A stretch of DNA of 64,000 bases, from NCBI GenBank assembly GCA_963844035.1, contig CAWJMT010000004.1, positions 1 through 64,000 of the forward strand. Reading direction: 5' to 3'. Of the stretch, positions 4,431 to 7,983 are shown in pieces (within the stretch, counting starts at the first letter, position 1; every line of letters begins with the position of its first letter). The position numbers were made by a program, and so were the translations under genes. The DNA comes from an uncultured Gemmatimonadales bacterium (GTDB lineage: Bacteria; Gemmatimonadota; Gemmatimonadetes; Gemmatimonadales; GWC2-71-9). The notes beneath the pieces were generated by a model. That model saw nothing but the letters and a program-made list of their open reading frames with translations. It was not told the DNA's origin and made no database searches.

Positions 4431-4529
4431 CGGCATAGTTCGATGCTGTCGGGCCGAAGAGGGCGAGGCTAAGTTGATGCAGGACACCACGCGACCGTGG
4501 CGGAACTGGTAGACGCGCAGGACTTAGGA
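4431..4529 (+). repeat. attL-like copy: 60 bp of tRNA-upstream sequence plus the 5' 39 nt of tRNA-Leu
   Basis: 4491-4529 is identical to 7902-7940; 4431-4490 matches 7842-7901 with 6 mismatches in 60. Confidence 0.95.
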
Positions 4530-4532
4530 CTC

Positions 4533-4560
4533 AAAGGCCCCCGTGCGGGGCCTTTGTTTT
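4533..4560 (+). terminator. Intrinsic terminator after the truncated tRNA 5' half (may also serve the convergent AKR gene)
   Basis: AAAGGCCCC-CGTGC-GGGGCCTTT followed by GTTTT. Confidence 0.8.
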
Positions 4561-4670
4561 CTAGTCAACTCCTGTCATGTCGTGTCCGCTAAGTCACCCC
4601 GTGCCGTCCGGGACCGGCATAGTTGCGGCATAGGTCCACCCGGCCAGCCTCGTACCTTTGCGACAACTCG

Positions 4671-5843
4671 TCACACCGTCGTGTCGACGAATTTCATCTG
4701 CATCTCGTTCATCCGGCCACCGTGCACCGTGAGTCCGGAGAGCGCCTCGTCGAGTTCGCGAAGGTCCGCGGGCGTCAGCTGCAGGTTGATCGCGCCGAGG
4801 TTCTCACGGAGGTGATCGGGATTGCGTGTGCCCGGGATGGGGACGATGAACGGCTTCTGAGCGAGCAGCCACGCCAGAGAGACCTGCGCCGGTGTGGCGT
4901 TCCTCTTCACCGCGAAGCGGTGCACGGCGTCGACGATCGGCCGATTTGCTGCCAAGTTCTCGGGGCTGAAACGGTCGAACCCTGCGCGAAGGTCCGTCTT
5001 CGGGTCGAGCTTCGTGCGAGCATCGATCTTCCCCGTCAGATAGCCCATGCCCATCGGGCCCCACGGAACGAAGCCAATGCCCAGCTCCTCACAGACCGCG
5101 CGCACGCCGTTCTTTTCCACGTCACGCTCCATCAGCGAGTATTCGGTCTGCAGGGCCGCTAGCGGCTGGACGGCATGCGCACGGCGGATGGTCGCGGCGC
5201 TCGCTTCGGATAGGCCGAAGTGAAGCACCTTCCCCTCTCTGATAAGATCGCGAACGGTACCCGCTACCTCTTCGATGGGTACCGTGGGATCCACTCGGTG
5301 CTGATAGAGAAGATCGATGCGGTCGGTGCGGAGCCGTTTGAGTGAGCCTTCCACCGCGATGCGGATGTTCGCCGGGCGGCTGGAGGGCGTGCCCAGAGGA
5401 GCACCGGAGTGCGAGACGAGTCCGAACTTGGTCGCGATGCGAACGCCGTTGCGGAAGGGCGCGAGCGCTTCGCCGACAAGGTCCTCGTTCGCGAAGGGCC
5501 CGTAGACTTCGGCCGTATCGAAGAACGTGACGCCACGCTCGTGCGCCTCACGAAGGACCCGCACGCCCTGCGCCTTGTCCGCGGGGGGTCCATAGTTCGC
5601 GCTGATGCTCATGGCGCCGGATCCAAGTTCCGAGACTTCGAGTTGTCCAAGTCTCCGTGTTTTCACGAGCCCCGAGTTGCTCTGGTTGGTGCCGACCTTC
5701 GGCAGATCTGTGTACGCGGCCAGGAACGACGGCCCGAGGATCAGTCCTGCCCCCATAGCGCCGCTGCTAGCTACGAAGGCGCGCCGACTGACTGCTCGGC
5801 GGTCTCGCTCATCCGACCCAATTCCCTCTGTCTTCGTTGTCAT
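4671..5843 (-). CDS. Aldo/keto reductase with Tat-like signal
   Basis: SRRAFV twin-arginine motif, [31 protein letters not shown]-like motif. Confidence 0.92.
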
Positions 5844-6697
5844 GCCTCGGTCTCCTCGAAGTGGTCGAACGACAGGGACGACGACAGATCGCGGTACGCG
5901 TCGATCTGGGCCTGAAGATCGGCAACCTTCTGCTCGGCCGATGCGATGGCATCCGCGCCCGCGATGAAGCGCCGTGGCGGCGGCTCTGCGCTTGCGATCG
6001 TGACTAATGCCCGGGCGAGCTTCGCGGGATCACCGCCCTGCCGGCCATTCTGGGACTTCCAGAACTGCTGCTGCGCTGCGGTGCGCTCCGCATAGTCCGC
6101 GAGGGAGGCTTCCGCGTACTGCGTCGACTCCGCCGAGAGGAGCTCCGTGCGGAAGAACCCGGGGTTGACGATTGTGGTCGAAATGCCAAATGGTGCAACC
6201 TCTGCCTGCAACGCCTCCATCCACCCTTCCAGACCAAACTTCGACGCGGAGTACGCTGTGCAGAACTCGAAGCCGGTCAGGCCTGCGCTCGAGGAGATCG
6301 AGATGATGTGCCCCGCGCGCTGCTTCCGCATGACTGGCAGCACCGCGCGAGTGACGTTCATGGGTCCGATCAGGCTGGTGGACAGCTGCCGCTCGATCTG
6401 TTCCGGCGTCAACTCCTCGAAGTAGCCCGCCCAGAAATTGGCGGCGTTGTTGACGAGCACGTCGATGCGGCCAAACCGTTCGACGGCGGCCCGCACCGCC
6501 GCTTCGGCGTCGGCGAGGCTCGTGACATCGACCTTCGCCACCAGGAGGTTGTCCGACGCGCCTACTGCGCGGGTCACGGCGTCAGGGCGCCGGCCGGTGG
6601 CCACAACCGTGTGACCGGCGGCCAGCGCGGCCTTGGCGAAATCGACGCCCATCCCGCGCGCGGCTCCCGTGATGAACCACACTTTCTTCTCAGTCAT
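5840..6697 (-). CDS. Short-chain dehydrogenase/reductase
   Basis: ITGAARGMG, NNAA, YSASK catalytic motif; an alternative upstream ATG at 6799 has a GGAGG SD. Confidence 0.92.
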   Translation of the reverse strand: MTEKKVWFITGAARGMGVDFAKAALAAGHTVVATGRRPDAVTRAVGASDNLLVAKVDVTSLADAEAAVRAAVERFGRIDVLVNNAANFWAGYFEELTPEQIERQLSTSLIGPMNVTRAVLPVMRKQRAGHIISISSSAGLTGFEFCTAYSASKFGLEGWMEALQAEVAPFGISTTIVNPGFFRTELLSAESTQYAEASLADYAERTAAQQQFWKSQNGRQGGDPAKLARALVTIASAEPPPRRFIAGADAIASAEQKVADLQAQIDAYRDLSSSLSFDHFEETEA

Positions 6698-6854
6698 CGC
6701 GTCCCCATGTACGTGGCGTTCCTGGTGATGCAGTCTTTCGCATGGGCAGAAGGTACCCGTCGCCTCCCGCGCTGTACCTGCCTGATCGTGGCGGGTCATT
6801 GCCTATTCCTCCACTCCTCTAGTATGAGCGTCAAGCGGTCCTTATCGTGTAGTC

Positions 6855-7838
6855 ATGCGGCATCGAATACCGGACTCGGCGGTAGCAGCGGCCCAGGAAG
6901 GGACGCGCGTGAAGGCGCTGTGCGGCGAGCTTGCGGGTCTGCTCGAGCGGCGGACAGGAACCGACGGCACGCACGAGACAGCGATCTCGGAGCTGAGGCT
7001 GTACCGGTTCTCCAATCCGACAGAACCGGTGCACCTTCTCCAGCAACCTGCGGTGTACGTCGTCGTGCAGGGCCGCAAGCAGGTGACGGTCGGCGACGAG
7101 ACGTACTTCTACGACCCTTCGCAGTACCTCGCGGTCTCCCTGGAGCTTCCCACGGTGACGCATGTCGTGGAGGCGAGCCCGGAGGAGCCGTATCTCTGCA
7201 TGACGCTGAACGTGGATCCGCGCGAGCTCGCGGCATTGATCGTCGAGACCGGACGGCCGGCCCCCCGCGACGATCACACCGGGCGCGCGCTGTACGTGAG
7301 CCCACTGCAGGCGCCGCTGCTCGACGGTTTTCTCCGGTTGGTGCGTCTGCTCGATGCACCACAGGACATCCCGGTGCTTGCGCCGCTCGTCCTACGGGAG
7401 CTGCACTACCGGCTGCTGCAGGGGGAGCAGCATGGGCGCCTGGCGGAGATCGCGATCGGCGACGGCCGGCTGCGGCGGGTGGCGGGGGCCATCACCTACA
7501 TCAAGTCGCACTTCGCGGAGCCGCTGCAAATCGAGGAGCTCGCGAAGCGCGTGAACATGAGCCCTTCCGCGCTGCACAACCACTTCAAGGCGGTCGCGGC
7601 AATGAGCCCGATTCAATATCAGAAGCGGTTGCGGCTCCAGGAGGCTCGTCGCCTCCTGCTGTCTGGAGCGACGAGCGCGGAAGCAGTCGCCTACGACGTG
7701 GGGTACGCGAGCGCGTCGCAGTTCAGCCGCGAATACCTCCGGCTCTTCGGTCAGCCTCCGCGTCGAGACGCTGAGCGTATGCGTGACGCCGTGTCGCGTG
7801 AAGTCCGATCAGTTGATCCCCGCAGCAATCCTGCATAG
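6855..7838 (+). CDS. AraC-family transcriptional regulator (AraC_N plus HTH)
   Basis: QGRKQV..YDPSQYL N-domain; MSPIQYQKRLRLQEARRLL, VGYASASQFSREY; divergent from the SDR/AKR genes. Confidence 0.93.
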   Translation: MRHRIPDSAVAAAQEGTRVKALCGELAGLLERRTGTDGTHETAISELRLYRFSNPTEPVHLLQQPAVYVVVQGRKQVTVGDETYFYDPSQYLAVSLELPTVTHVVEASPEEPYLCMTLNVDPRELAALIVETGRPAPRDDHTGRALYVSPLQAPLLDGFLRLVRLLDAPQDIPVLAPLVLRELHYRLLQGEQHGRLAEIAIGDGRLRRVAGAITYIKSHFAEPLQIEELAKRVNMSPSALHNHFKAVAAMSPIQYQKRLRLQEARRLLLSGATSAEAVAYDVGYASASQFSREYLRLFGQPPRRDAERMRDAVSREVRSVDPRSNPA

Positions 7839-7901
7839 TTACGGCATAGTTCGGTGCTGTTGGGCCGAAGCGAGCGACGCTAAGTTGATGCGGGACACCA
7901 C

Positions 7902-7983
7902 GCGACCGTGGCGGAACTGGTAGACGCGCAGGACTTAGGATCCTGTGGGGCAACCTGTGGGGGTTCGAGTCCCTCCGGTCGCA
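7902..7983 (+). tRNA. tRNA-Leu (anticodon TAG), CCA not encoded
   Basis: Acceptor GCGACCG/CGGTCGC, D-loop TGGTAGAC, anticodon stem CAGGA-CTTAGGA-TCCTG, long variable arm, GGGGTTCGAGTCCC T-arm. Confidence 0.97.

Follow-up and report, generated by a model that had tools for sequence, protein, structure and literature searches.

Elements that leave a fragment of the tRNA 5' end at their insertion site and elements that have lost their own integration genes have both been described. In Islander, where the presence of an integrase is a condition for listing, 159 of 3,919 islands show 5' fragments (PMC4383910), and a cis-mobilizable element (CIME) is defined as one without integration and transfer genes in which attL and attR are kept and which undergoes tandem accretion (PMC5704250). 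Here, we consider a 3,411-bp unit upstream of a tRNA-Leu(TAG) gene in a stretch of 64,000 nucleotides (the window), which forms the first part of contig C4 of G000, the assembly of an uncultured Gemmatimonadales bacterium (3.47 Mb, 39 contigs, completeness 83.7%). The unit encodes an aldo/keto reductase (AKR), a short-chain dehydrogenase (SDR) and an AraC-family regulator, and in our judgement it is probably a CIME-like remnant of a small tyrosine-integrase element of the 5'-fragment type, the integrase having been lost and the attachment ends kept. The observations themselves comprise the 5' fragment and where it ends, the paired repeats, the hairpin and the cargo, together with a unit lacking any recombinase and ends of the same anatomy in relatives that do carry an integrase. 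Both 5'-fragment islands and CIMEs are already known; the layout is uncommon but known.

With the Islander islands of the anticodon (A) subsite, the unit shares a co-oriented 5' fragment upstream, a presumed crossover at the anticodon loop and a length above 2 kb; different from them, it lacks an integrase and fails the Islander filter, which asks for a tyrosine integrase of neither the Xer nor the integron type. In addition, 5' fragments are a minority in Islander, whereas they form the majority (8 of 10, in a quick tree) in the nearest integrase clade identified here (PMC4383910). As in CIMEs, integration and transfer genes appear to have been lost, attL and attR are kept as putative sites, and units probably stack in tandem through later integration into attR. 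However, the CIME examples described there lie at the 3' ends of target genes in streptococci and derive from integrative and conjugative elements or integrative and mobilizable elements (IMEs) (PMC5704250), whereas here the element targets the 5' half of a tRNA and, as a remnant, likely carries the promoter of that tRNA, and its relatives look satellite-like. The tycheposons of Prochlorococcus are likewise small cargo elements with tyrosine integrases at tRNAs, arranged in tandem stacks parted by partial tRNAs and with fragmented integrases in older island material, but they belong to another phylum and have their own integrase and often a replication module, both missing from our unit (bioRxiv 10.1101/2020.12.28.424599). 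The arg2 islands of Klebsiella also sit upstream of the tRNA and include its 5' part in the recombination site; different from the present case, integrases are present, and the site runs from the acceptor stem to the D-loop instead of ending with the anticodon loop (bioRxiv 10.1101/2020.11.02.365908).

Also compared were satellites of the tycheposon or phage-inducible chromosomal island type, whose integrase and excisionase, replication or packaging module are missing here and present in some relatives; IMEs, which have their own integrase and an oriT or relaxase, whereas the unit has neither integrase nor relaxase; and integron cassettes, defined by attC and an adjacent IntI/attI, in place of which the unit shows putative arm-type att sites. 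Our search of titles and abstracts returned no report of such elements in Gemmatimonadota.

The duplicated tRNA 5' half and the unit it bounds

ARAGORN places tRNA-Leu(TAG) at 7902-7983, with the anticodon at tRNA position 35 and the 7-nt loop at 7934-7940. Upstream of it, a direct repeat of 116 nt (4414-4529 versus 7825-7940, 105 identical, spacing 3,411) includes an exact block of 48 nt (4482-4529 = 7893-7940), made up of 39 nt of tRNA and 9 nt of leader. The identity of the two copies stops at the last base of the anticodon loop, tRNA position 39, and all 11 mismatches fall upstream of the tRNA part (11 of 77 upstream positions). The locus presents a co-oriented 5' end fragment upstream of an intact gene and a presumed crossover at a known subsite, as in Islander-type islands. 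An Islander-like scan of all tRNAs of G000 found this to be the sole true 5' fragment; a second 5' match was set aside because it belongs to a different tRNA-Pro cut by a contig end. The GC content between the copies is 64.8%, versus about 67% in the flanks. The features of the locus are as follows.

4414..4490, plus strand: left copy of the arm/promoter segment, with one intact arm repeat (4432-4439), the first repeat eroded, and TAAGTT at 4470-4475
4491..4529, plus strand: displaced tRNA-Leu(TAG) 5' half, putative attL, ending at the last base of the anticodon loop; the presumed 7-bp overlap would be 4523-4529
4532..4562, plus strand: 10-bp hairpin with a T tail (4532-4556, z -4.67), directly inside attL, the predicted terminator of the orphan half-tRNA transcript
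4616..4633, plus strand: inner arm-type repeat pair (putative P' arm) with a period of 11 bp, its end lying 104 nt from the crossover; its exact 17-mer also lies beside a phage integrase
4671..5843, minus strand: AKR (PF00248, E 1e-70), stop codon 37 nt from the P' arm
5840..6697, minus strand: SDR (PF00106, E 1e-49), likely start at 6697, start of the longest open reading frame (ORF) at 6799
6855..7838, plus strand: AraC-family regulator (PF06719 and PF12833), divergent from SDR-AKR, stop codon inside the first arm repeat
7833..7850, plus strand: arm-type repeat pair (putative P arm), running from 101 nt before the crossover to 30 nt before TAAGTT
7881..7886, plus strand: TAAGTT, the predicted tRNA -10 box; a similar TAnnnT box lies shortly upstream of tRNA-Leu(TAG) in most relatives compared
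7902..7983, plus strand: intact tRNA-Leu(TAG), putative attR, in a conserved locus upstream of tig-clpP-clpX
1..4413, minus strand: left neighbour, with a large unassigned ORF running off the contig, an S-adenosylmethionine methyltransferase (3118-3774) and a cation-efflux-family gene (ORF 3738-4490)

An earlier note, made from the letters of the window, had described an exact duplication of the tRNA 5' half ending at the last base of the anticodon loop and a unit carrying only AKR, SDR and AraC with no integrase; both descriptions hold, the second in agreement with the protein family matches. It had also described a duplicated upstream segment of about 60 bp with a -10-like box: the box is indeed common to both copies (4470 and 7881), and the segment measures 77 nt.

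No recombinase was found in the unit, and neither a relaxase nor an excisionase, replication or packaging gene appeared among its protein family matches and ORFs. In the whole of G000, PF00589 has three matches, which we named from sequence and context as XerD, XerC and an integron integrase (IntI, on contig C10), and the serine recombinase families gave zero matches. A hidden Markov model (HMM) of the integrase clade introduced below, run with filters off, recovered only cross-matches to XerC, XerD and IntI in G000, without any integrase remnant, and no integrase stub in the unit. The genome-wide search for a cognate integrase that the earlier note had called for thus ended with XerC, XerD and the integron integrase.

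As for the cargo, the AKR presents an N-terminal extension with a putative twin-arginine-like motif, which suggests export as a prediction. Homologous AraC and AKR modules adjoin tRNA-Gln in three genomes (L263, L264 and L265 in G021, G141 and G194); thus, such cargo may circulate among tRNA-linked sites.

Putative attachment ends and their integrase-bearing relatives

A repeat pair with an 11-bp period (GCATAGTTRCGGCATAG) lies inside both ends of the unit, 101 nt before and 104 nt after the presumed overlap. Allowing up to 2 mismatches, its 17-nt motif occurs at just 3 places in the 3.47 Mb of G000 (4422, 4617 and 7833), the one at 4422 being the eroded copy within the left repeat. In IMG/VR, the exact 17-mer was found in one stretch (L218), where it shares bases with the stop codon of a tyrosine integrase gene (PF00589, E 1.5e-23); next come a reversed tRNA 3' half (by eye, Thr), a hairpin and a second repeat pair. 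The arrangement corresponds to that of an attP with paired arm-type sites, the layout described for lambda-like integrases (PMC10865867). Given this 17-mer at the end of a phage tyrosine integrase gene, the repeats of the unit are likely integrase arm-type sites. The AraC stop codon, inside the first arm repeat, occupies the position that the integrase stop codon has in L218. With the core and both arm pairs present, attL and attR appear to be retained, as predicted sites. A generic tandem-repeat test, crude and supportive, found a repeat of at least 7 nt downstream of 13 of 32 fragments, compared to a background of 6-7%. A viral scan for arm, gap and TAAGTT returned about 1,200 stretches, presumably by chance, and was not used.

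These ends bear on whether the unit might be moved by XerC/XerD of the host or by its chromosomal integron integrase. The enzymes in question are the only tyrosine recombinases found in G000, and the genome G417, which has a 2.7-kb unit, yields just two matches. However, paired arm repeats such as those of the unit characterize a lambda-like integrase clade that occurs at the ends of phages and islands, and we consider mobilization by Xer or IntI scarcely to be expected. By eye, the core is also unlike the consensus of dif or attC.

Relatives of the L218 integrase occur in 34 of 401 genomes of the family at E <= 1e-35; a locus-level search with this integrase as the query returned only L218 itself. 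We examined 30 integrase loci, 12 of which have a co-oriented tRNA just downstream; in the others, we noticed a reversed tRNA or tmRNA (11), a reversed 3' piece, by eye (3), or none of these (4). In a quick tree, in which one row comes from an unpublished genome and is dispensable, the L218 integrase and nine others form one clade (SH-aLRT 99), with 8 of the 10 co-oriented. A TAAGT box follows the start of the last arm repeat by 37-39 nt in all eight co-oriented ends measured and by 38 nt in both copies of the window. The upstream DNA of eight co-oriented elements was compared: for four of them, a 5' fragment lies on the same contig, 2,894, 5,065, 6,809 and 9,899 bp away, and no 5' fragment was found in the DNA available for the other four. 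In three of the four elements with a fragment, a hairpin and then an arm pair follow, 81-85 nt in, compared to 86 nt in the window, the hairpin having the same position as in the window. Overall, members of the clade target the 5' side of at least seven types of tRNA, and a single conserved design of the ends is common to them.

The related elements combine the integrase with or without excisionase-like, helicase or toxin-antitoxin-type genes, some of them carrying satellite-like genes (excisionase, helicase/primase, terminase small subunit), and no relaxase or conjugation family was detected among 60 proteins scanned from related units. In several relatives of the reversed type, a TAAGT(C/T)GTT box is present between arm and core and resembles the consensus for integration host factor (IHF). 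It is a matter of speculation that this IHF-like TAAGT box was reused as a -10 box.

TAAGTY precedes tRNA-Leu(TAG) in 25 of the 401 genomes, and a strict sigma-70 scan found no promoter in the region upstream of the tRNA. It is the conservation of the TAnnnT box, and not a match to the strict consensus, that leads us to suggest that the right end of the unit probably carries a working tRNA promoter. The earlier proposal that the element supplies the tRNA promoter therefore stands as regards a promoter-like, element-borne end before the intact tRNA, the promoter function itself being predicted.

Probable integrase loss and possible continued traffic at tRNA-Leu(TAG)

A circular progenitor likely had an attP that comprised an arm pair, the TAAGTT promoter, the tRNA 5' half, the hairpin and a second arm pair, with an integrase gene ending at the first arm. 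Strand exchange spanning the 7-nt anticodon loop would join the promoter and 5' half of the element to the 3' half of the host tRNA. The promoter and 5' half that had stood there before would remain upstream and be closed off by the hairpin, which at attL would stop transcription from the orphan promoter. The integrase would later have been lost, with cargo now filling the space up to both arms, and selection would have to keep the tRNA promoter at the right end. The integration proposed in the earlier note, by a tyrosine integrase at the anticodon loop and with a 5'-fragment layout, is supported. The type is indeed the 5' one; its supposed rarity is less pronounced, given the Islander figure and the 12 of 30 integrases that lie upstream of a co-oriented tRNA.

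The left copy presents an arm repeat in the register of the element, and for this reason the promoter displaced at 4414..4490 was probably itself the right end of an older sibling unit, and the site a stack, rather than simply a copy of the host promoter. The unit would thus have entered the attR of this sibling, newer units pushing older ones away from the tRNA. The left neighbour (1..4413), which has no match elsewhere in G000, is likely the cargo of the older unit, with its far end beyond the contig. Should a cognate integrase arrive, it could probably excise the unit, alone or in tandem.

The loss of the integrase is suggested by the relatives. Among the same-genus loci compared, the DNA upstream of tRNA-Leu(TAG) differs, and tig-clpP-clpX downstream is conserved. 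The 2,386-bp unit of G280 is of the same type: it keeps both arms and contains a terminase-small-subunit-like gene along with an integrase of the L218 clade that is truncated and frameshifted. In G001, of the same genus, a C-terminal integrase stub of 41 residues is present (E 5e-10, best matches in the clade), and G093 shows a weak stub of 20 residues (E 2e-4). From the broken integrase of G280 through these two stubs to the window, where none is found, the sequences form a decay series at one tRNA gene, and this stepwise decay favours a remnant. The unit fits the CIME definition of lost integration and transfer genes, as it holds only AKR, SDR and AraC, with the loss itself deduced from the pseudogenes of G280 and G001. 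On the JGI contig L055, which comes from a single metagenome scan, a similar end has the arms and no integrase stub, with no integrase or tRNA fragment in 8 kb. A further fragment, in G475, rests on an unpublished genome, and the argument is independent of it.

The earlier note had proposed mobilization in trans, and in its fuller form the proposal is that of an actively trafficked, non-autonomous cassette, circularizing as attP plus cargo, served by an integrase in trans and using the tRNA as an integron-like collecting site. Several observations favour it: both arm pairs are intact and symmetric, and the cargo abuts them; in G413, an integrase-free unit of 5.5 kb is stacked next to an element whose integrase, of another clade, immediately precedes the intact tRNA on a contig of its own; related ends enclose different cargo in six genomes (G413, G418-G422); and a CCCAGC arm motif is common to the integrase-free 6.0-kb unit of G380 and the integrase-bearing element of G413. 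Furthermore, in five soil or bog runs compared as contigs (depth 2-5), pieces of the cassette (4520-4668, and 4554-4876 with the P' arm) recur at about 93-100% identity in three soil runs from different studies (X1, X3 and X5). However, no circle joint or empty-site joint was among the joints listed for the five runs, no cognate integrase was found in G000, the unit has no relaxase, excisionase, replication or packaging gene, and the integrase pseudogenes and stubs at tRNA-Leu(TAG) indicate that decay happens. In G300, the AKR-SDR-AraC trio is just 73-80% identical, with no tRNA within 1.5 kb. On balance, we regard continued mobilization in trans as unlikely, and the stepwise decay in relatives favours the remnant over it.

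A broader form of the same idea, which we hold as doubtful, is that the 5' sides of Gemmatimonadales tRNAs are integron-like docking stacks, in which minimal cassettes (attP arms, a tRNA promoter and 1-3 cargo genes) are shuffled in trans by a promiscuous integrase clade. Such a clade would switch easily between 3' and 5' sites because the TAAGT box of the P arm, IHF-site-like in several 3'-type relatives, would double as the tRNA -10 box.

It should also be considered that the layout might be a misassembly, a strain chimera or a RecA-type duplication instead of a site-specific integration. G000 appears to be a mixture of related strains, since many contig pairs overlap at 81-99% identity and several tRNAs are duplicated (listed contamination, 3%), and the first 900 bases of contig C5 have a chimeric look, with stray rRNA-like and transposase-like sequence. 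Moreover, no run contig bridges either junction by 31 nt on both sides; positions 4150-4423 of the window are uncovered in four runs, which carries no evidential weight. Against an artefact, 11 of the 77 upstream positions are not the same in the two copies; the identity stops exactly where the loop does, which also holds for the 14 genome loci and 19 viral contigs described below (the search patterns select this end point); and the inner P' arm and the hairpin lie outside the duplication, yet match integrase-bearing relatives. We therefore judge an artefact very improbable.

Returning to the remnant, several points weigh against it. An intact integrase of the clade was found at tRNA-Leu(TAG) in 0 of 27 matches (25 of 401 genomes) and in 0 of 16 longer loci, so that the progenitor is reconstructed from pseudogenes. 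The second tRNA-Leu(TAG) of G000, on contig C5, is 88% identical over 2.4 kb downstream, shares just 27 nt upstream and has neither cassette nor fragment nor arms, an allele that speaks for the remnant; its left flank differs from that of the window, however, so that the empty site it offers is not clean. In other genera, too, tRNA-Leu(TAG) has integrase-free units whose ends are conserved. The cargo comes within 0 and 37 nt of the arms, and neither repeat pair is damaged, a tidier state than random decay predicts; this fit, the recurring integrase-free units and the high identity of the run pieces are consistent with continued trafficking. Finally, with an assembly that is 83.7% complete and strain-mixed, and a contig that starts 4.4 kb upstream, a cognate integrase may be unassembled.

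A GTDB-wide pattern for the tRNA-Leu(TAG) 5' half matched at 14 loci, spread over 12 genomes (10 Gemmatimonadota, 2 Nitrospirae), and no tyrosine recombinase was found in the flanks fetched. Unit sizes among these loci are 1,616, 2,722, 5,497 and 5,993 bp, and 874 bp in the unpublished G415. The 5' half is carried by 19 viral contigs, with an integrase in the flank of 14, 7 of which were not part of the HMM used. The other-clade integrase of G413, used as a query, returned no further tRNA-Leu(TAG) element in the 401 genomes. A pattern search across the phylum proved too loose and was discarded: 45 of 401 genomes matched, only G000 and G380 in the fragment form, and the rest were read as intact tRNA variants.

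Implications and further tRNA-linked observations

Since island finders that depend on an integrase skip such units, the traffic of accessory genes in an abundant soil phylum may be undercounted. An element that supplies the tRNA promoter can become hard to lose fully, as decay can take all but the promoter, and the relatives offer snapshots of the decay steps. Furthermore, target switching could be tested in the integrase clade, which might also yield integration tools for Gemmatimonadota. With its ordinary redox cargo, the cassette is modest in itself.

A second family of ends uses the same tRNA 5' side in G413 and G418-G422 (L283-L288, L111, L112, L117-L119, L122), with a GGGTCT repeat pair and long conserved arms; G418 has four end copies with differing cargo, and no integrase was found for this family of ends. 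In G421 (L209 / L184, C285:825-1799), one tRNA-Leu(TAG) is used from both sides: an end of the 5' type precedes it, and an arm repeat and a partial integrase that belongs to the wider group lie downstream. A 330-bp unit in L123 was set aside because its downstream tRNA is a different variant: at 9630-10080, a tRNA-Leu 5' half and an ORF of 71 aa are followed, 330 bp on, by a different tRNA-Leu(TAG) variant. A sequence similar to the end of this ORF precedes the tRNA in G632 (L308), and a tRNA replacement at L123 is possible.

At L044:7493-7540 (G006, contig C131), the promoter and first 25 nt of tRNA-Leu are joined to unrelated DNA near the contig end, representing either a D-loop break or an assembly artefact. 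In G023 (L053:15333-15700), tRNA-Leu(TAG) is followed by three short repeats, each ending in the 3' 20 nt of the tRNA.

Within G000, the conserved upstream genes lie about 52 kb from the C5 tRNA-Leu(TAG) (C5:3250-55000; L001, L109, L110); the stretch between them holds two paralogous amino-acid decarboxylase/antiporter-like sets and no tRNA fragment or integrase remnant. On the 3' side, a phosphoesterase and a second gene lie between the tRNA and tig in the window (7935-10307, minus strand) and in C5, at 88%; they were not seen at that place in L055 or G004, and thus variation extends to the 3' side of the tRNA. At C4:409327-410216, C4:390404, C27:106399 and C27:109280, long tRNA-like genes assigned to Val or Ala have variable arms and an unusual anticodon arm, and one of them has a 30-nt 3' fragment 800 bp downstream.

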